Positions 38,839 to 47,892 of a stretch of 64,000 nucleotides of DNA are shown here, piece by piece. This DNA is from Candidatus Poribacteria bacterium (GTDB lineage: Bacteria > Poribacteria > WGA-4E > PCPOR2b), in the NCBI GenBank assembly GCA_965208675.1, contig OZ242351.1:4256001-4320000 (forward strand), given 5' to 3'. Positions within the stretch are counted from its first letter, which is position 1. Each line of letters opens with the position of its first letter. A program made the translations under genes and the position numbers. The notes beneath the pieces are model-generated. The model worked only from the letters and a program-made list of their open reading frames with translations, was not told the origin of the DNA and ran no database searches.

Positions 38839-38926
38839 TGGCGGTGGGAGTAGGATTTGAACCCACGGTGACTTTCGCCACAACGGTTTTCAAGACCGCC
38901 GCATTCGACCACTCTGCCATCCCACC
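38839..38926 (-). tRNA. tRNA-Ser(TGA)
   Basis: Arm GCGGT CT TGA AA ACCGT; encoded CCA. Confidence 0.95.
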
Positions 38927-38941
38927 TAAAAACGGTAGGTA

Positions 38942-38971
38942 ATTGTACCAAAATTAAACAGTCGTTGTCAA
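38942..38971 (-). promoter_or_regulatory. sigma70 promoter of the tRNA-tadA operon
   Basis: Minus strand TTGACA-18 nt-TACAAT with extended TGn, 15 nt before tRNA-Ser(TGA). Confidence 0.75.
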
Positions 38972-39174
38972 TGGAAAATCAGGCGGCGAATGCGCACTTT
39001 TTGCGTTCTTACGACCCGTAATTGCGATTCCGCGCCTACGCATTTTTGTTCCGCACGAACAGCCGAATTTTATTGCGGAATCGCACGAATTGCCTGTCTT
39101 ATCCATATTCTTAAGCCTCGACCTCTTTCATTTATGAGAGCGGCAATCGAAATTCCCCCCTACAAGAATCCGAC

Positions 39175-40110
39175 CCCTGTAGGAGCGATCGTCGAATGGC
39201 GGTACGTATTCGCTTTCCCGCTCAACCCAACCTATAACCTCCCCTAACCGCTCCTTAGTAAGGAGGGGAATGATTATTGGAAGGAGCCGACAGGGCGTTC
39301 TCACTGTAGGAGAGGCATCCCTGCCTCGACAATCGGGAGAAGGATTTCCCGCCCACACCGTGGCTTCGTGCGAATTTCTGGACTTGTGGGTAATAGTAAG
39401 CCTACTAAGGGGGGCGAGGGGGGGGTTAGGTTCTTGTAGGTTGGGTAGAGCGGATAATCCCATATCCGCATCAATGGTAAGTTCCCACTCTTAATAACCA
39501 TACGACACCATTGGCAAAATTGCTGTAGCGAAACCCAACGCTTTTGAAACCTCCCGACCACCAAAAGCTATAGTAGTCCTCCCCCTTACTAAGGGGGAGC
39601 TAGAGGGGGTCATACACGCTTCGTCAGGAATCGGAATTCCCTCCTGCCGACAACCTACTGTAGGACCAATCTCCAAATCGCGGCCTTTATGTGAAACCGC
39701 GTTTTTTCTTCAAAACTCGGTTTCTTAATCGCAGCAAAACCTGTATTTAGCCCCAGCGGGGCGGCCGGTATATAGAAAACACAGTAACCCCCACCCCAAA
39801 GCCCCAGCGGGGCGACAGGTGTATAGAATGCAACATCTTCGTAGATTGTGTGGATCCGACCACTAAATCGTCAGTTCTTGTAGGTTGGGTAGAGCGGATA
39901 ATCCCATATCCGCATCAATGGCAATTTCCCACTCTTAATAACCATACGACACTATTGGCAAAATTGCTGTAGCGAAACCCAACGCTTTTGAAACCTCCCG
40001 ACCACCAAAAGCTATAGTAGTCCTCCCCCTTACCAAGGAGGATCAACTGAGCGAACAGCGAAGGATTAACCGGCCGAATAGGGAGGGCGATAGTCCTCTC
40101 CTCTCCCGTG
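39175..40110. repeat. Nested REP/MITE-like repeat cluster
   Basis: About 160-bp direct repeat (39431-39590 and 39875-40033) starting TTCTTGTAGGTTGGGTAGAGCG; two GCCCCAGCGGGGCG units (about 39750 and 39801); 39305-39402 resembles the reverse complement of about 36706-36842. Confidence 0.8.
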
Positions 40111-40415
40111 TTCTCCGAAACTACCACCGGTCAACGATACACGTTCCAACTCCCAAAAAACGCCGGGTTAAGCTTCATCAGATTTAATCATGTACGCAAT
40201 CAAAGCAGCTACCGCTCGCCGCATACTCGCGTTCGTTCGTCAAAACCGATCTCCCAACCCACAAGTGCTCTGCCTATCGCTTGACTGCCACACCCCACAT
40301 CTGGTACATTACCAACAATTTCAGGATTTCCAACTCGACCAGATCGCCATGGGTTTTCCACCTTAAGACTTTTTCATCCTTATCCAAACGATGGGGGTAC
40401 GTTCAGGGGGGAGCG

Positions 40416-40642
40416 TTAGTCAAGAAGTCTTGATTTTGTGGTCGCGCATTCTATGCCAAGCGATTGTCTAATCCAATACGGGGAAAAGCAATCTACACCA
40501 TAATATTGCTAGGATTCTTGTAAGTATTCGCGGTAAAGGTTTTCAGGGAGAGATAACGGCACACCATATTCGTCTCGTATCTTAAAACTCTCCTTTGCTT
40601 CCTTTAGTAGTTGTCTTAGCTCCTGTTTATTTCCTCAATCAT
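40416..40642 (-). pseudogene. Degraded gene fragment, family uncertain
   Basis: Reading frame ELRQLLKEAKESFKIRDEYGVPLSLPENLYREYLQES*QYYGVDCF...TTKSRLLD* continues in a protein-like way through an in-frame TAG at 40509-40511. Confidence 0.35.
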
Positions 40643-41192
40643 GCCTTCTTTCCTTCAATGCGGTGCTTCCAAAACGCACGATAATGCAAAAAATTTAACC
40701 TATTCAACACGTGTTCTTCCAAGCAAGGGTTTTAAAATCGTGCGCGAGAGATTTGATGATCCCGTAAGATGAACACTGATCGTGCTTTTGTTAAGCAGTT
40801 AGATTATTTCTTTCCGTTTGCCCTAGGGAATCGTTGTTGTACGCATCTATCGGTAGTATGTGATCTCTGTACCGAGCCAGGAAGCGCTAGTCGTCTGGAG
40901 CACGCCGTGTGCATCAGTCATTACAATAGTCGGTCAGTTTGGAATCCGGCGTAATTACCGGGGATACCGGCGAAAATCCGGTCTTCAATAATGAGACCGA
41001 GGCGGAATGCAAGGCTTACAATGGGTTGGTCAAATACGCGATCTCTTCGCATCACACAGTCGGAATGAATGGGGAATGCCAGCCGGCGTTTATCAAGCAA
41101 AAAATCGCGGCCGGATTAATCAATATTCTTGAATCGCTTGCTACACAGTGTTGTGTAGTCGTATCGTGGACGGAAAGGATGCACACCGCAAT

Positions 41193-41867
41193 TCATTCCG
41201 GAAAAGGAATCTCCGGTTGATTACCGTTCAACAGATCTTTATAGTAACTAGACTGCTGTAAAATATTTGACTTAATCAAACTTTGGCGAGACAACGCGAC
41301 GTACAGCGCAGCTGAATACGCCTGACAGCTGAAGGATCGTTTCGGATTGAAAACAATGTCTGAAAACGCTTCGTACTCTTTTAGTTGCTCCGCGAGATTC
41401 GGATTCTGCTCTAGCGCCTGTAAGTATAGTAAATTGTAGAAGAAAGTCCTTGGCTCAGTCGGAAATTTCTTACCGTCAAAGTGATAACTGCGTAATTCGC
41501 CAGATGTTCGATGGCGTTCGTCGGTTTTTGCCTCTCGGCTTGACACATCGTACAAATCGATGTATGGTCCGCCTTTTTCAAAAACCTTGCTCCCTTGATA
41601 TGCGCATTCCACGCTCATCTCCTGCCCGCGTGGTGTTCGTAATTTTAGATTGAATGCACTCAATAATACTCCAAGTGTGGATTTCGACTTTCCTGAAATC
41701 TCCAAGATTGGCTCAATTCCCAACCTATTAGCGGCTTGGTGCAATGAATCAATAGATTTCTGTCGCTGTGATTTTGCAAAACCCGGAAACCATCTGAATT
41801 CTACGTCAATGGTTTGAACAAAAGAGACATCGCTTGAATCCGGTAAAAAAAGGGGGCGCTTTGCCAT
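41193..41867 (-). CDS. DarT1-associated NADAR-family antitoxin
   Basis: MAKRPLF, FRWFPGFAKSQRQKSI, LEISGKS..LG..LSAFNL, SVECAYQGSKVFEKGGP, AFSDIVFNP..SFSCQA; directly downstream of darT. Confidence 0.85.
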   Translation of the reverse strand: MAKRPLFLPDSSDVSFVQTIDVEFRWFPGFAKSQRQKSIDSLHQAANRLGIEPILEISGKSKSTLGVLLSAFNLKLRTPRGQEMSVECAYQGSKVFEKGGPYIDLYDVSSREAKTDERHRTSGELRSYHFDGKKFPTEPRTFFYNLLYLQALEQNPNLAEQLKEYEAFSDIVFNPKRSFSCQAYSAALYVALSRQSLIKSNILQQSSYYKDLLNGNQPEIPFPE

Positions 41868-41879
41868 TATTTACAACTC

Positions 41880-42650
41880 CTAAAGTGGTATGTCGTCTTC
41901 TGGAGGAATCTTTTCAGGAGAAGGCCCTTCCTTGCTTTCCGAAACAGCACGCGACCAGAACTCATGGTCGACTCTTGGGTAGAAGTATTCCATGTCGTAG
42001 CGACATTTTTGAGTGAAGTTGCCGACATTGCCGCATTCCCATTGTCGCATAGCAGGAAAATCGAAAAAAATTACCTCCTTAATATACCGTGATGATATTC
42101 GGTCAAACACTAAAATCTCCGCTTGAGGATTCGTGGGAAAATTTCGGGGGATTCCCAATGATTTGCAACGAATCTCTCTGGTGTCGTAGTCAGATTCATC
42201 GCCAAATAATGCCCGAAACTCTTTAGGGTGTTTTCGGTCTTCCAATGGAATTTGGCGTACCCTGTTAGAAGAAGCGTTTTCTTGGCAAAACGCACAATCC
42301 AATTCCCATAACAATTCGGCGTCAAGGATTAGAACAACCCATTGGGAATCATACACGTCATCAGTTGTCTTTTTCTGCTCCCTAATTGAGAAAAACATTC
42401 TGTAGTTTGGAAAACTTAGACTTAGGCAAATTCGGTCTTTGTGCCCGTCAATGCGATCAACATCATTTATTTGGCAACTGATTCCTTGGGTGTCCAGCCG
42501 TTCTCGACTCAGCAATCCTTCCCGGAGAATGCTACCGAGATTTTCGATTCGTGTGAAATGCGCAAGGGTTTGTATTCCCCGCTCGACGCAGAACTGTTTA
42601 ATTTGAGTTCTTCTATCGTCCCAAAGTTCTCGCTGTTTGAATTCGCTCAT
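41880..42650 (-). CDS. darT: DarT (DUF4433) DNA ADP-ribosyltransferase toxin
   Basis: LAHFTRIENLGSIL..GLLSR, ND..RIDG...ICLSLSFPN.RMF, catalytic PTNPQAEILV. Confidence 0.85.
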   Translation of the reverse strand: MSEFKQRELWDDRRTQIKQFCVERGIQTLAHFTRIENLGSILREGLLSRERLDTQGISCQINDVDRIDGHKDRICLSLSFPNYRMFFSIREQKKTTDDVYDSQWVVLILDAELLWELDCAFCQENASSNRVRQIPLEDRKHPKEFRALFGDESDYDTREIRCKSLGIPRNFPTNPQAEILVFDRISSRYIKEVIFFDFPAMRQWECGNVGNFTQKCRYDMEYFYPRVDHEFWSRAVSESKEGPSPEKIPPEDDIPL

Positions 42651-42876
42651 TTTGTCTGGTCAAGACCTCCTTACGATTGTTGGTCATGGTACTTACTGAG
42701 AGTTTAGCAAACGTACCGCGTCTATCTGTAGAGAATCAGCGTAAGTTGAACAATATCCCTCGAAGCCGTTTGTGGCTTTAGATGTGCCGCTTAGAAGCAT
42801 TGAATCCCCTTCGCATTGACAACGTAGATTCTCTACATATGTTGATAGACGTTCCCTTACGCTTGAGTTTAGTATT

Positions 42877-43420
42877 TCATTTTCGAGGCGTATTGACAGT
42901 GATTTGAATCCGAAGCCCGCGGGCAATGTGTTCTAAGCGTTCTTTTCGCTGTTTGGTGGGGCCGCCGCATTCCACATAATGTCCATCAATTAGTATCGGT
43001 TTTCTTACGGATTTTGGAAGGTCCCTGCGGTGTTTGACTATGTTAGGATCGTACGGTGCACAAGGCTCCCCGCCTAGCTTGCTAATAACCTGCCGGAATG
43101 TATCTGTTCCGTTATCGTGATGTATGTGTTCCGCATTCGCCATTCTGACATCAAGATTCGTTTGGGATTCATAGTATCCTTTCCTTCCGCTCTTTGGTTG
43201 CGGTGTGGATTTCAGTCGCGGTTTCGATGGGGTGCCTTTCAGCGTCCTTAGGAAATCCAAGACGTGTGAGTGCGGCGGTTTGTGCCCAGAATGCTTTTTC
43301 GGCTTTCGTCGCAACCACTTCCGCCAGAACTGCGGACATTTCGTCTGGTTCGTTAAGCAACAGTTTCCATTTGTCACGTAAACTATTCCTTCTGCTTTAC
43401 GCCTTCCTGAATGTCTAAAT
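42877..43420 (-). pseudogene. Frameshifted C-terminal remnant, resembling tails of restriction-endonuclease-like proteins
   Basis: Two overlapping frames (...KWKLLLNEPDE..VLAE.. and ..LDVRMANAEHIHHDNGTDTFRQVISKLG..ERLEHIARGLRIQITV); no intact start. Confidence 0.4.
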
Positions 43421-43874
43421 GTTCTCGCTAGAGAGGGTTATCTGCTGAAAAGGTGATTTTTACCGAGCCTTTTTCGGGATCACGGTGTATGGGAGTTTCT
43501 GACGGAGGTAAATGTGATATCATATTGCTGAAATTTATGGAGATTAGGGGACAGCACATGGATGGCGAATTAGTAATCAATATTCCTTCGGAATCAGAGT
43601 GGAGTCGCCGTGCTGTTAAGTTTTAATCGCTGGCGTCGCTATATCACCGATTTGCCGTGCTAAGACGTGACAAGGGCGGCTGCCGGGCATCTAGTGACCA
43701 AATTGAGAACCCTATAGAACTCCCAGTGGGTTTCGGATTGTACCATGATAGTGATTGGAAATCAAGAGTAAAGGGACATGGACGCTACATAGCTACCGGC
43801 AACTCAGGCGAACGTGATTGACAGCTTTCCAATCACACCCAAATCGTCTTCAAACAGCTGTCTGCCCAGTTTAT

Positions 43875-44220
43875 GTAGGTTGGGTAGATCGGATATGGTG
43901 ATACATACGTAGTATTTTGTAAGAAATACATACCTTGAGATTGTTTGGTAAATGTAACGGTGGAGCGAAACCCAACGTTTTTGAAACGTTCCGACCGCAG
44001 AACTGCGCACCCCAACACCAGAACGATTGTGACAGGAATATACGATGAGAATGTTTGAAATTCGGAGTGGCGTATTGTAATCGGAATTTGCTAGGGTTGC
44101 CGGAGGTTAAAAAGCGTTGGGTTTCGCTATGCGTAAATTGTCAGCCGTATCATCAGAGATTCGCAACGGTAACCTGCCACCTGAACCGTTTTGCAATTAT
44201 CCGCTCTACCCAACCTACAG
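43875..44220. repeat. Inverted pair of REP-like GTAGGTTGGGTAGA...AACCCAAC elements
   Basis: GTAGGTTGGGTAGA at about 43875 with CGAAACCCAACG at about 43966; mirrored CGTTGGGTTTCG at about 44115 and TCTACCCAACCTAC at about 44205. Confidence 0.7.
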
Positions 44221-44581
44221 AAACTTCTGCGACGGTCCCGACGCCCTACAAGGCGCAATCGAGTCGCCCACTACCCGTTTCCTCGTCGAACGGCTTCCGA
44301 ACGGAATGCCGGAAGAGGAAAAATCCGGCCAAATGATGAACATTGTAAGGAGCTATCCATCATGACTGAATTATCAATAATTGCTGAATTAACTAACCCG
44401 ATAAAGGCTTCAAAAATGAGCATTCTCAACTTATCTTTTCAAATGCTCAACCCCACAAACCCGCTCCCTGTCTAGCGTTGTGCCTATTTTTACTAATTTT
44501 CGCATATTCCAAATGCTCACAGAATGCTCAAATCAAAAATCCCAAATTTGCTTTTCCGTAATGGGCGCTGACACAACAATC

Positions 44582-44610
44582 TTGACGCCATTTATGGTGT
44601 CTGATATAAT
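44582..44610 (+). promoter_or_regulatory. Strong sigma70 promoter of the ParB-like operon
   Basis: TTGACG-17 nt-TATAAT with extended TGn. Confidence 0.7.
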
Positions 44611-44785
44611 CCAAAAATCGCCATTAGCACATGCGAACTTTGGGTTTCAATGTACGCCGGCATTGTTAAATGTCAGAAGTTCTATTGTCGTTGATGAAGA
44701 TACGATTTTTGCTGTCCAATTCAACCTACAATTCCAGCGCGTTGATTAACAGTATACGCCGACATAAACACAAAGGAGATTTACG

Positions 44786-45640
44786 ATGAGCGGAATCACG
44801 GAAATTCTTGTCAGTAAAATTGACCCAAAAAGTGAAGTCAACGTACGTCGCCTCGGTATTGAAGACAATGTAGAGCAAGTTAAATCCTCCATTCAAAAGC
44901 ATGGTTATTGGCGTGACCAGCCAATCGTAGTTCGACCGCACCCGGACCCCGCATCTGGATTCGAATTTCAGCACATTACTGGTCAATGTAGGTTAAAGGC
45001 GTGTTTAGAACTGGGAATGTTGGAAATCCCCGCTGTTGTCGAAGACATTAGTGATGAAGAAGCTATTCAGCGCTCCTGGGGAGAAAACGAGCATCGCGGA
45101 GAGTTATTAATGTCCGATAAAACTTACTGGGCAAATTATTTCTACAACCGCTATAGAGGCGATATGCATGAGACAAGAGAAGCTATTGAGCTTGCCGCAA
45201 AGTTTCTAAATGTGACCGTTGACACTGTGCGCGATTATTTAGGTTTGGCCCTCCTTCCGGAAGAAGTGATAAAAATGGCAGATTCAAAACTCATCACAAA
45301 AGATCAGGCGGAGGCTATTATGAAAAATACCCATGACCCTTCGTCATTTGACGAATCACAGCAAAAGATGATAGAACGTGCGAGCTGGCTTCAACAACAA
45401 CCATCCCGAGAAGGCAGAACATTTGCTGTAGAGGCATTGAACGAATTGACACACGACGCTGCTATCAAAGAATTAAATGGATATGTAATGGATAAATTCG
45501 AGGATATAAAACGAAAGGTGGACATTGTCATACCGACACAGTTGTATGATGATTTATTAAAATGGGGCGAGCGTCGAGGCGTGGAAGACAAATCTATCAT
45601 CATAAATCTCATGATTGCGGAGACTCTGCGAGATGGATAA
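44786..45640 (+). CDS. ParB/Srx N-terminal domain protein with HTH and a possible C-terminal ribbon-helix-helix
   Basis: NVRR, SIQKHG..QPIVVRP, ITGQCRLKAC..LG...IPAVV, ENEHR, HTH (AAKFLNVTVDTVRDYLGL..LPEEV); RBS AAGGAG. Confidence 0.85.
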   Translation: MSGITEILVSKIDPKSEVNVRRLGIEDNVEQVKSSIQKHGYWRDQPIVVRPHPDPASGFEFQHITGQCRLKACLELGMLEIPAVVEDISDEEAIQRSWGENEHRGELLMSDKTYWANYFYNRYRGDMHETREAIELAAKFLNVTVDTVRDYLGLALLPEEVIKMADSKLITKDQAEAIMKNTHDPSSFDESQQKMIERASWLQQQPSREGRTFAVEALNELTHDAAIKELNGYVMDKFEDIKRKVDIVIPTQLYDDLLKWGERRGVEDKSIIINLMIAETLRDG

Positions 45641-46250
45641 GGATACCGCGCGAGCGTATTTAACACATCCGAAGGGCCGGAAACCTTCGGAAATTGGTGA
45701 AGCTGTGGCAGTTTTACGTTCAGATTATCACTCCTATAAAGAAATGGCGCGCGATTACCCATTGAGCGAAAAAACCTTGTCGGGACGACATCGCATATTT
45801 CGACTTCCCAAGGGCATTCGATGGAAGATTGACGAAGGGGAAATTTCAATCACTAAAGGCGAGCAAATAATCCGACTTAACGAAGAAATGGACCAGTGGT
45901 TTTTAGCATTCGCTATTGTCGAAGAACGACTAGAGGAAGAAGTATGCATCAATGTCGTTACTCGCGTTCAGAAATACAATGATTCGATTAGGGATGCCCT
46001 TCGTGAAGCCGCGGGTGTGCAATGCGATAGCATTGTCCATTTGATGCTACCTCTAAATTTTGACGTCCGATTTGCAATGGCTCAGAAAGCATGGGATCGA
46101 AATACGGAATTACAGGACTTTTGCTATGACCAAATGCGTGAAGACCCCGACGCCGCCCTTCAAGAATTAAAGGACGCTTATCGCTCCCTACTATCAAAAT
46201 TTGACGAGGGCATGTCGCATTTACTTGACACTGGATCTGGCTCGGCTTAA
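45633..46250 (+). CDS. ParB-like HTH/central-domain protein lacking the N-terminal CTPase domain
   Basis: PSEIGEAV..L...SYKEMARDYPLSEKTLSGRHRIFRLPKGIRWKIDEGEISIT resembles the ParB HTH region; ATG overlaps the upstream stop by 8 nt. Confidence 0.6.
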   Translation: MDKDTARAYLTHPKGRKPSEIGEAVAVLRSDYHSYKEMARDYPLSEKTLSGRHRIFRLPKGIRWKIDEGEISITKGEQIIRLNEEMDQWFLAFAIVEERLEEEVCINVVTRVQKYNDSIRDALREAAGVQCDSIVHLMLPLNFDVRFAMAQKAWDRNTELQDFCYDQMREDPDAALQELKDAYRSLLSKFDEGMSHLLDTGSGSA

Positions 46251-46284
46251 CTATGCACTTGCCTAAATTTTTTAAGGTTGGGTA

Positions 46285-46690
46285 AAGATCAACTGAACGA
46301 AAAGATCAGATGAACCAGTGGCGAGCGCCAAAGCTTTTGTAGGTTGGGTTAAGCGGGCAAATAAGGGATGCAAAACTCGACGAATGGATACCGGAATTTG
46401 AATTTGTTTGGAATTTGAAAAATGTGTAGCGAACGCAACGGTCAACTGAATGAATAAATCAAGCGACTGCATGAGGAATGCTATAGCGACATTGCAATCT
46501 TAATTCCCCTCCTTACCAAGGAGGGGCTAGGGGAGGTTATGGAACAGGATCAACTGAGCGATTAGCGATGGCGATTGTCTTTTCCTCTCCCGTCTCCGGC
46601 TTCCCCGCGCATCGAATCTTGAACCGCTTCTTCCGCGCAACGTAAAATTGTACAGCATACGGTGAAATCCGCTCAACCCAACCTACAAGA
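46285..46690. repeat. REP-like repeat cluster at the right edge of the island
   Basis: GTAGGTTGGGT at about 46339, CCGCTCAACCCAACCTAC at about 46669, CCTTACCAAGGAGG and GGATCAACTGAGCGA shared with 40028-40055. Confidence 0.65.
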
Positions 46691-46734
46691 ACTGAAATCG
46701 CACGGTTTAGAACGTAGATACCAGGCAAAATTAA

Positions 46735-47340
46735 ATGCAAACACACATCATTACCCGTGACCACATCGTTTATAGTTTCGACCGAGAGCATAACCCGGTT
46801 CGAAAAATCGATCCAGGCGACAAAATCTGCTTTGAAACCTATGATGCGAGAACCGGTACGATTCGGGGCGAAGATAATCTTCTCGACCGCCCGCATCCGC
46901 TTGGCGCAAATCCCGCTACCGGACCTGTATTCGTGCGAGGTGCCGATCCGGGTGATACCCTCCGTGTTGAGATTCTAGAGGTCCAACTTGCATCGCAGGG
47001 TTTCATTGCGATAAAGGCGGGGTTGGGAAACTTGGGGCATCTCGCCGAAAAGTATGTGACTCGCCTCGTTCAGATCGAGGACGGCATCGTGCACTATGAC
47101 GACCGCATACGTTTTCCGGTTCGCCCGATGATTGGCGTCATTGGCACCGCGCCCAAACTTGCCGATGCCATCACTATTGCCTGCGAAGAAATGGCAAATC
47201 TTCTCCAGCAGAAACTCTCCGTTTCGTTCGACGACGCCTATCTGTTGATGAGCGCCATCGGCGACGTTCGGATAAGCCAATCCTGCCAGCCGAACCAATT
47301 CCCTTCCACAATTCGTGTCGTTTTTCCCAAAATCGGTTGA
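46735..47340 (+). pseudogene. Acetamidase/formamidase family gene with an in-frame internal deletion
   Basis: NPATGPVFVRGADPGDTL and PMIGVIGTAP join directly to the C-terminal LADAITIACEEM...DAYLLMSAIGDVRISQ; the GGNxD and GDxHA..GDGE region is absent. Confidence 0.7.
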
Positions 47341-47660
47341 CGCTTCCAAAAAATAATAGAACCTTTACGTCCTCGTATTGACTCCTTACGTCCGTAATGA
47401 ACGTTGACCTTGACGGCTGGTATATGGTATATTTTCACAATCTGAGCGGGATCGGATTTCCAATCGTGTAGAAGGCGTGATTAGCAGTGTAAAGAAATCG
47501 CGCCGGCAATCCGAGAATCTCATTCAACTATACATGCGTCAGGACAATCTCCTAAAGTCATCAGAATCAGAAGACAGATCGGAACGATGTATTGATGTAG
47601 CGGCAAAGAGCTCAATATTCCTTACCTGTCTCAATCAGAGACGTTAAACACCTATCGAAG

Positions 47661-47713
47661 AAAAGCCCATGTCTGAATCCGGGGCTGCCAGCCGGATTGG
47701 TCGTGGGCTTTTT
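47661..47713 (+). terminator. Terminator-like hairpin upstream of polX
   Basis: AAAAGCCCAT..AATCCGG..CCGGATT..GTGGGCTTTTT. Confidence 0.55.
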
Positions 47714-47892
47714 GAATATAATGTCCTATCCTAGGATGCACGTTTGATATCCTTCACAGAAAAACGATCTGCCTGCGTTTTTTACTTAATTGTATGGTTT
47801 CTGGGTTACTCCCTGAAGTCATGCAATTTTGCCGGCGCTACCACTAATTGCGCCAGCCTATACGTCGGTGGACCATTGGAAGGAATTACCAG

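Follow-up and report, generated by a model that had tools for sequence, protein, structure and literature searches.

A fixed gene pair of an orphan ParB-family protein and a ParB-HTH paralogue in Poribacteria and other phyla, probably a mobile DNA-binding switch

Background

ParB proteins are the founding members of the cytidine triphosphate (CTP)-dependent molecular switches. In the KorB-KorA system of plasmid RK2, a ParB-family clamp silences genes jointly with a small dimeric DNA-binding protein from its own operon; KorB carries an SH3-like C-terminal domain, and KorA is not a paralogue of the ParB helix-turn-helix (HTH) domain. In the AspA-ParB-ParA operon of the Sulfolobus plasmid pNOB8, the centromere function is divided between a site-specific adaptor, the winged-helix protein AspA, and a ParB whose N-terminus has the ParB fold, and ParA is part of the same operon. 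Among orphan ParBs, we know of no protein with an assigned role apart from Noc, KorB, VirB and PadC. Orphan ParBs, which have the ParB-CTPase fold and are encoded outside parAB operons, are described as widespread and often located on mobile elements in the available part of a recent survey (bioRxiv 10.1101/2025.10.10.680097).

Here we describe a pair of genes that belongs to this context, located in a stretch of 64,000 nucleotides (nt) from a Candidatus Poribacteria bacterium (assembly GCA_965208675.1, contig OZ242351.1, positions 4,256,001 to 4,320,000). This whole stretch is called the window, and coordinates without a prefix refer to it. Gene 1 encodes a ParB-family protein and gene 2 a ParB-HTH paralogue without the N-terminal nucleotide-binding domain. 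A first-pass annotation, made from the sequence alone, had proposed that the two form a ParA-less module in a defence-type island. The pair is a fixed, co-inherited and co-transferred unit that unrelated sponge-associated bacteria share, and its role is probably that of a mobile DNA-binding switch, not that of a chromosome-partition system.

Architecture of the two proteins

The genes are tightly coupled as the first-pass annotation had described, with an overlap of 8 nt (ATGGATAA). The following features were assigned to them.

44786-45640, forward strand: gene 1, orphan ParB-family protein P0001, 284 amino acids (aa)
44786-45100, forward strand: ParB/Srx N-terminal nucleotide-binding fold, gene 1 residues 1-105 (Pfam ParB_N at residues 5-101 and VIA structure matches)
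44981-44992, forward strand: box II (P-motif) GQCR, gene 1 residues 66-69 (GERR in canonical ParB)
45083-45097, forward strand: box III ENEHR, gene 1 residues 100-104 (read from the sequence)
45101-45490, forward strand: ParB HTH/central DNA-binding domain with helical linker, gene 1 residues ~106-235 (PDB profile, Foldseek and hhalign)
45509-45637, forward strand: predicted ribbon-helix-helix (RHH) tail, gene 1 residues 242-284 (AlphaFold2 (AF2) model and VIA alignments)
45633-46250, forward strand: gene 2, N-domain-less ParB-HTH partner P0002, 205 aa, ATG at 45633
45633-46013, forward strand: ParB/Noc-type DNA-binding domain, gene 2 residues 1-127 (PDB profile, Foldseek and VIA)
46023-46235, forward strand: predicted RHH-like unit, then a long C-terminal helix, gene 2 residues 131-201 (AF2 model and VIA matches)

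Gene 1 encodes a ParB-family protein with an N-domain, an HTH domain and, according to its predicted structure, an RHH tail that replaces the usual ParB C-terminal dimerisation domain. It passes the cut-offs of Pfam ParB_N (PF02195; 46.1 bits, cut-off 26.3) and NCBIfam TIGR00180 (64.6 bits, cut-off 58.45), and it matches ParB-like families of PHROG. The NCBIfam scan listed ParB/RepB/Noc models, and the DndB model was not among them. In the PDB, the gene 1 profile matched ParB with E 1.8e-19, and the alignment to ParB/Noc extends to residue ~199 and places GQCR on the GERR of Caulobacter ParB and Noc. The AF2 model of gene 1 has a predicted local distance difference test (pLDDT) score of 91.7. 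VIA structure matches of its N-domain are PadC (Z 11.5, root-mean-square deviation (rmsd) 2.3 over 96 aa) and sulfiredoxin (Z 8.6), and the pNOB8 ParB N-domain (Z 11.3 over 209 aa) is among the best structure matches of gene 1. Foldseek retrieved Noc, ParB and KorB, and the best template modelling (TM) score belonged to 8qa9_A, a chain of the KorB-KorA co-crystal (TMq 0.49 / TMt 0.65).

The GQCR and ENxxR boxes noticed in the first pass were examined in an alignment of 36 sequences of the gene 1 family. Residues G66, Q67, R69, E100 and E102 are invariant, and C68, C73 and N101 are conserved in at least 90% of the members. Gene 1 lacks the full GERR box II, with Gln where GERR has Glu and Cys where it has its first Arg in nearly the entire family, and the terminal arginine of GxxR and the ENxxR box are both kept.

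Gene 2 as a single sequence remained under the Pfam cut-off for HTH_ParB (20.2 bits, cut-off 22.6), as did its match to DUF7119. The profile of 26 relatives, in turn, detected the DNA-binding domains of Spo0J (E 8.9e-9) and Noc (E 1.7e-8) in the PDB. The HTH segments of the gene 1 and gene 2 families align with each other (hhalign probability 90%, E 1.4e-6, gene 1 residues 136-181). For the AF2 model of gene 2 (pLDDT 91.7), superposition on the DNA-binding domain of Noc gave a TM-score of 0.78 and an rmsd of 2.9 Å (Foldseek), and superposition on Spo0J gave Z 12.2 (VIA). Because of the family profile, the paralogy found with hhalign and the superposition of the AF2 model, gene 2 is a ParB DNA-binding domain that begins where the N-domain would end, a true ParB-HTH paralogue without the nucleoside triphosphatase fold, which agrees with the earlier description of a CTPase-less partner. 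The giant proteins P0107 and P0110 among the gene 2 matches are secreted repeat proteins and were discarded as spurious. A lead from DUF7119 to a paper on Haloferax HpaAB was also dropped, as that paper does not mention DUF7119 and is irrelevant to gene 2.

Both proteins had been said to end in RHH-like segments, and predicted structure supports this whereas family models do not. In the AF2 model, the gene 1 tail consists of an extended stretch followed by two helices. Residues 242-284 of this predicted model superpose on RHH domains with Z 4.5-6.1 and rmsd 1.3-3 Å over 39-48 residues (VIA), including NikR (Z 6.1, rmsd 1.3 Å over 43 aa; H. pylori NikR Z 5.6), the PutA RHH (Z 5.4, rmsd 1.7 Å), HP0222, MazE6/9, TacA, ParD2, CopA, AmrZ and TraM. 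Residues 131-205 of the gene 2 model resemble RHH proteins with a C-terminal helix, with Z 4.4-6.0 (VIA); the matches are KacA, MatP, MazE, ParD, TacA, RelB, FitA and the PutA RHH. None of 30 gene 1 tails and none of 30 gene 2 tails matched a Pfam RHH family, and the tail sequences had weak matches only in the PDB (ORF56, E 0.6, for the gene 1 tail; ParG, E 0.45, for the gene 2 profile).

PADLOC-DB v2 (library dated 2023) gave for gene 1 a weak ParB-domain match to MTase_II (E 0.0034), a match to PtuA (E 0.025) and no system model, and no match for gene 2. Neither protein matched a toxin family in Pfam, NCBIfam, PADLOC or PHROG, and a recognisable effector domain (nuclease, NADase or pore) was found in neither of them.

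Distribution, selection and transfer of the pair

Close homologues of gene 1 are present in 20 of 151 Poribacteria genomes, including the genome of the window. In this phylum sample, gene 2 is located directly 3' of gene 1 in all 20 other loci, which belong to 19 other genomes. A scan with the gene 1 alignment, using one representative genome per species, yielded 40 loci. Gene 2 directly follows gene 1 in 39 of them, and the exception ends inside gene 1 at a contig end; the pair is thus kept together in several phyla, as had been expected of a real module. The main taxa are Poribacteria (18 loci) and Chloroflexota (10 loci, mostly Dehalococcoidia). Pseudomonadota are represented by Candidatus Spongiihabitans and Candidatus Poriferihabitaceae, and further loci were found in Nitrospina (Nitrospinota), Planctomycetota and Phycisphaerae, Bacteriovoracaceae, Candidatus Hatepunaea and Candidatus Tariuqbacter. 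The remaining loci are from four metagenome-assembled genomes (MAGs) without taxon label. In addition, contigs from three other sponge-metagenome runs hold the cassette at ~98% identity.

The gene 1 family is tight, with 56 cluster representatives of 174-291 aa and 37-75% identity, and a gap separates it from canonical ParBs, which start at E ~1e-5. Relatives of gene 2 amounted to 49 representatives at E <= 0.001 among 1.84 billion, and in none of the 49 is gene 2 fused to an N-domain. The two genes usually overlap or lie few bases apart. In an all-against-all clustering of the open reading frames (ORFs), gene 1 and gene 2 were the only ones common to the loci; the next cluster occurs in 4-5 loci. 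In all 8 pairs compared, the ratio of nonsynonymous to synonymous substitutions (dN/dS) of either gene lay within 0.07-0.39, and by this sequence measure both genes are under purifying selection. A stop, frame break or insertion is present in 7 of the 40 copies, which may represent decay or assembly error in MAGs.

In the gene 1 tree, the Chloroflexota clades are nested within the Poribacteria copies. The Poribacteria label needs four changes on this tree, and 0% of the bootstrap trees allow one; the topology therefore indicates transfer between phyla. Within the genus of the window's genome, the pair is present in one of three other genomes, at a different site, and the DNA of that copy resembles the window within 44773-46228 and not beyond. 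A pattern scan of IMG/VR detected no relative, and tblastn with gene 2 as the sole query gave no match in 72,556 plasmids and 50,697 phages.

Some copies deserve separate mention. In one Poribacteria locus (L071:6858-8783), gene 2 is interrupted by ~1.27 kb of DNA whose 284-aa ORF runs on the other strand; upstream of the pair in another locus (L048) there is a related ORF of 112 aa, and the insert is possibly an insertion sequence. The genome of the window also contains a lone 80-codon ORF (G000:C1:3632260-3632490; L003:1483-1725) that is 49% identical to gene 2 residues 127-203. It lies in an ORF-poor stretch and is either what remains of another cassette or a tail domain that stands on its own.

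ParA and partition genes

When three ParA-like proteins from the genome of the window were used as tblastn queries, no ParA was detected in 34001-56000 of the window, which agrees with the first pass. With the same queries, a ParA neighbour was found in 1 of 58 stretches, corresponding to 1 of 41 distinct loci, and the pair is accordingly not an ordinary partition cassette. In that single, distant locus (L082:243-3056), a 122-aa ORF follows the ParA/Soj gene, and the setting is chromosomal, with an lpxC-fabZ fusion and an ATP-binding cassette (ABC) ATPase. ParA families are absent from the 25 commonest Pfam families of 135 neighbouring genes of other loci, and no rep or plasmid genes were found among the conserved neighbours. 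The ParA-binding peptide [LIFV]G[KR]G[LIFV], as defined in the available part of bioRxiv 10.1101/2025.10.10.680097, is absent from P0001. It occurs in 1 of 32 gene 1 family proteins, there in a doubtful N-terminal ORF extension.

Across this Poribacteria order, 61 genomes were searched, including many that are single-contig and 94-99% complete, and 17 of them encode a ParB_N protein of any kind. Judging from these sequence searches, the lineage seems to possess no canonical parAB operon. As the pair is held by 20 of the 151 genomes of the phylum and any ParB_N by 17 of the 61 genomes of the order, the pair cannot be the segregation machinery of the lineage, and a partition role for it is unlikely.

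A distant relative linked to Dnd genes

The ParB_N matches of the order that do not belong to the cassette (in genomes G014, G124, G017 and G043, and a second one in G034) are located 1.6-2.7 kb from DndE matches. In four Poribacteria loci, a block adjoins dndD-dndE (PADLOC DndD 748 bits, DndE 138.6 bits) and contains an SNF2 helicase, a ParB-like protein, a ParB-HTH-only partner and a 339-aa protein with an HxHxDH motif.

L089:2562-6565: Dnd-linked block
L090:2248-6239: Dnd-linked block
L091:2009-6045: Dnd-linked block
L092:1991-5968: Dnd-linked block

The Dnd-linked ParB-like protein (277-299 aa) aligns with the gene 1 family over 239 columns, tail included (hhalign 97.4%, E 8.9e-12); its box II reads GQRR and its tail is RHH-like. 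The partner (236-239 aa) aligns with the gene 2 family over the ParB HTH domain (hhalign 92.9%, E 3.6e-7). A GHKL-like gene for 533-534 aa follows the block in two of the four genomes. PADLOC v2 gave no system-level match for the ParB-like protein (weak MTase_II domain, E 2.5e-06), the partner or the HxHxDH protein. In a reappraisal of Dnd systems (NAR 2024, PMC10853773), the ParB-superfamily protein DndB is treated as a partner of DndD-DndE, and the available part of that article does not describe a block of SNF2, ParB-like, partner and HxHxDH genes. From its gene content, this block is a candidate Dnd-linked restriction or sensing module. The architecture of a full ParB with a gate-less partner hence recurs in a conflict-system setting, which is a hint to the function of the solitary pair and not evidence for it. 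DndE is present in 7 of 20 holders of the solitary pair and in 34 of 131 non-holders, and the genome of the window lacks it, so there is no clear link between the solitary pair and DndE.

Genomic setting in the window

The pair of the window is located in a variable region with the following features.

39203-46691, no strand: variable hotspot, from a tRNA cluster to formamidase-like/PolX genes (synteny with three same-genus genomes)
41193-41867, reverse strand: NADAR antitoxin, 224 aa (NADAR-DarT1 2.7e-85)
41880-42650, reverse strand: DarT1, 256 aa, intact (Pfam DarT 3.2e-19), 2.1 kb from the pair
43867-44225, no strand: upstream flank, repeat resembling a miniature inverted-repeat transposable element (MITE), with inverted ends TTGTAGGTTGGGT(A/T)(G/A)AGCGG
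44226-44550, no strand: second dispersed repeat, ~320 nt, with four AATGCTCA words and at least nine other genomic copies at 70-83% identity
44582-44610, forward strand: sigma-70-like promoter candidate TTGACG-17-TATAAT with TG, 11/12 matches, 175 nt 5' of gene 1
46331-46695, no strand: downstream flank, MITE-like repeat; synteny with relatives returns at 46692

Synteny with the three same-genus genomes is lost at ~39203 and restored at 46692, and a cluster of six tRNA genes and tadA precede the hotspot. Its cargo in the window's genome consists of repeats, DarT1-NADAR and the ParB pair. The same hotspot carries Nmad3, DUF4268 and 2OG-Fe(II) oxygenase genes in genome G021, and a metallophosphoesterase gene in G038 and G005 (counterparts L086:1621-6840, L087:1493-4116 and L088:3905-6575). 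The synteny break and the cargo that differs between same-genus genomes mark the site as a variable hotspot, and what it carries is of the conflict type. The proposed defence-type island therefore holds for the hotspot of the window, as does the DarT-NADAR pair placed about 2 kb away. At the other loci, however, the neighbours (n=135) are mostly housekeeping genes, e.g. nuo, atp and tetratricopeptide repeat (TPR) genes, and a minority match defence models. In raw counts, Uma2 was found in 4 and D12 methylase in 2 of the 135, and PADLOC matches were 3-5 for PDC-S03 models and one each for methyltransferase and type I S subunit models.

The first pass had also assigned the pair a strong promoter of its own. 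The promoter-like site is present in the window; nonetheless, it is not conserved in relatives, and the upstream DNA is not conserved even in the same-genus relative. The region contains 9 promoter-like sites compared with 5.7 +/- 2.5 in shuffles, so their number is unremarkable. The second dispersed repeat lies directly upstream of the site and includes a 37-codon ORF with a strong Shine-Dalgarno sequence (44363-44476). Its four AATGCTCA words at 44417-44530 were considered as an operator array and rejected, as they belong to the dispersed repeat and are not cassette-specific.

MITE-like repeats of ~170-360 nt are also present at 39207-40042, and on the downstream side such repeats occupy 46265-46695; their translations yield recurrent 'KRWVSL' and 'YPLYPTY' pseudo-ORFs. 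The 13-mer of the MITE end has 201 copies in the 4.89-Mb genome (96 and 105 by strand). In our view, the MITE-like repeats are fillers in non-essential DNA rather than proven vehicles. Contig joints from 44129 to 46668 were considered as a sign of excision; the sides are under 30 nt within MITE ends, and the joints were discarded as repeat artefacts. Further ORFs of the region are a 166-aa ORF in the hotspot (42877-43377) and, after the island, a formamidase/acetamidase-family ORF of 201 aa (46735-47340) that covers Pfam model positions 24-155 of 373. Compared with G021, the latter misses ~275 nt at 47148-47155 and is possibly a gene fragment. No Rfam family was detected in 38900-47800 at E <= 0.1.

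Possible function and alternative explanations

Our tentative best explanation, which we hold to be possible rather than likely, is that gene 1 acts independently of ParA as a nucleotide-gated ParB clamp on DNA and that gene 2 anchors it to DNA or regulates it, both being encoded in a self-contained, horizontally mobile operon. For gene 1, nucleotide binding is plausible because box II has kept its terminal Arg and box III its ENxxR. Glu-to-Ala mutants of Caulobacter and Myxococcus ParB reportedly bind CTP and do not hydrolyse it; by analogy, GQCR points to hydrolysis that is altered, probably slowed, or to another nucleotide preference. Since RHH units form obligate dimers, each of the two proteins is probably a tail-tethered dimer. 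Gene 1 and gene 2 would each dimerise through their own RHH unit, like canonical ParB through its C-domain. Gene 2, unable to close an N-gate, might then anchor gene 1 on DNA at specific sequences, load it or act as its brake. DNA would as a result be coated or silenced locally, without ParA-driven transport. The patchy spread across phyla, the occasional decay and the residence in a variable hotspot fit a cassette that is accessory, conflict-type or self-maintaining better than they fit a housekeeping function. The heterodimeric or partner-gated clamp of the first-pass annotation found no support; a single co-fold of full-length gene 1 with gene 2, without controls, scored 0.00 and speaks neither for nor against it.

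Several points weigh against the clamp-and-partner explanation. Homology between the two tails is not detectable (hhalign probability 0.3%), and the RHH assignments have modest Z scores (4.4-6.1) on predicted models, so that they are structurally supported and not proven. Near the cassettes, no 7-10-mers were shared among 40 upstream regions beyond shuffles (the best common 8-mer occurs in 5 of 40, and the shuffle maximum was 4-5 in 19 of 20 shuffles and 7 in one), nor was a shared palindrome found (best half-site in 3 of 38 loci). What GQCR may mean for hydrolysis is derived from mutants of canonical ParB. Nucleotide specificity, moreover, is not readable from sequence, according to the available part of bioRxiv 10.1101/2025.10.10.680097. 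The remaining points concern partition. Gene 1 is the only ParB_N protein of its own genome (4.89 Mb, single contig, 96.4% complete), and the ParA-like genes of this genome, the best at C1:2743521-2744297 (G000), have no ParB neighbour. In L082, a ParA/Soj gene of 288 aa (PDB E 1e-10) lies 46 nt 3' of gene 2 in the same direction, so ParA-linked ancestry or use is conceivable.

These partition-related points, together with the TIGR00180 score of gene 1 and its match to the pNOB8 ParB N-domain, speak for a degenerate or unconventional partition system, either a centromere-binding complex (a site-specific adaptor and a spreading ParB, as in pNOB8) with a distal ParA or the relic of an integrated plasmid. 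We consider this very improbable, given that the pair is absent from most genomes of the phylum and ParB_N from most of the order, gene 1 lacks the ParA-binding peptide, all but one of the 41 loci lack an adjacent ParA, the conserved neighbours include no rep or plasmid genes, searches for shared words and palindromes found no parS-like repeats near the cassettes, and no relatives turned up in IMG/VR or, with gene 2 as query, in plasmids or phages. In a toxin-antitoxin-like addiction system, free gene 1 would be harmful through DNA coating or nucleotide consumption, and gene 2 would neutralise it and autoregulate the operon. The tight coupling of the genes fits this idea, as do the solitary cassettes scattered among housekeeping genes, the 7 broken copies of 40 and the lone gene 2 3' fragment in the same genome. 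The gene 2 tail also shares the RHH-plus-helix architecture of the KacA, MazE, ParD, TacA, RelB and FitA antitoxins, although Z scores of 4.4-6.0 are common for small helical units. A ParB-fold ATPase toxin is reported in the available part of bioRxiv 10.64898/2026.05.05.722872. Gene 1 nevertheless keeps the full DNA-binding ParB architecture without any toxin-family match, and the broken copies are possibly MAG assembly errors, which leaves addiction quite doubtful.

A two-gene anti-phage or anti-plasmid defence, in which the ParB clamp and its partner recognise or coat incoming DNA and silence it or block its replication, is likewise unlikely. It would account for the patchy distribution with cross-phylum transfer, for the tRNA-flanked variable hotspot beside DarT1-NADAR and its Nmad3, DUF4268 and 2OG-Fe(II) oxygenase cargo in G021, for the distant homologous pair beside dndD-dndE in 4 of 4 loci examined, and for the PADLOC matches (raw counts) of some neighbours of the solitary pair. 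However, neither protein matches a PADLOC model beyond the weak ParB-domain match or has a recognisable effector domain, the majority of the 135 neighbours are housekeeping genes, co-occurrence with DndE is not clear, and relatives are missing from IMG/VR and, for gene 2, from the plasmid and phage collections. A more specific form of the ParB-clamp explanation is a two-protein switch in which the GQCR clamp is loaded, parked or released by its gate-less paralogue, both being RHH-tethered. Such a switch might be passed between phyla of sponge symbionts as a stand-alone conflict cassette, in defence or in addiction, and its distant form might sense DNA for a Dnd-linked restriction module of the SNF2-MBL type; we regard this as rather unlikely in its full extent.

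Comparison with known systems

ParB proteins with CTP-dependent switching offer a framework in which the pair is a compact test case, since the putative clamp always comes with a gate-less paralogue, a fixed change of the phosphate-binding motif, a predicted RHH dimeriser and ParA-less movement between phyla. Should loading or release of the clamp be under the partner's control, this would be a new mode of regulation of the ParB switch. Were the pair to restrict foreign DNA, or to ensure its own maintenance, a ParB-based mechanism would be added to the defence or addiction systems. The pair is also relevant to the question of how members of this Poribacteria order get by without a recognisable ParB.

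In its proposed logic, the pair resembles KorB-KorA, but RK2 also encodes the ParA homologue IncC. Similarly, the proposed roles of the two proteins resemble the division of labour in pNOB8; the pair differs in having an adjacent ParA in 1 of 41 loci only. In the predicted models, the tails of both proteins superpose on the domains of type Ib partition proteins and RHH regulators such as ParG, omega, NikR, the PutA N-domain and RHH antitoxins. Unlike in ParG, omega or NikR, the RHH would be fused behind a ParB HTH, with two DNA-binding modules per chain, and a sequence-level match is absent. Dnd-linked ParB-superfamily proteins such as DndB are associated with dndD-dndE, and a distant gene 1 homologue with its own HTH-only partner is also found beside dndD-dndE in the four Poribacteria loci, whereas the pair of the window is solitary and its genome has no DndE.

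The paired family was not found in the available part of the literature on ParB and orphan ParB proteins, and the supplements of the surveys may list it. Orphan ParBs as a class are already in print (bioRxiv 10.1101/2025.10.10.680097, available part), and the pair is a variant within that class. Like the orphan ParBs, with Noc as the characterised example, gene 1 has a TIGR00180-positive N-domain and an HTH, is encoded away from parA and possesses no ParA-binding motif. It differs from them in its obligatory N-domain-less ParB-HTH paralogue, in the predicted RHH tail instead of the canonical C-terminal domain, and in its GQCR box II.

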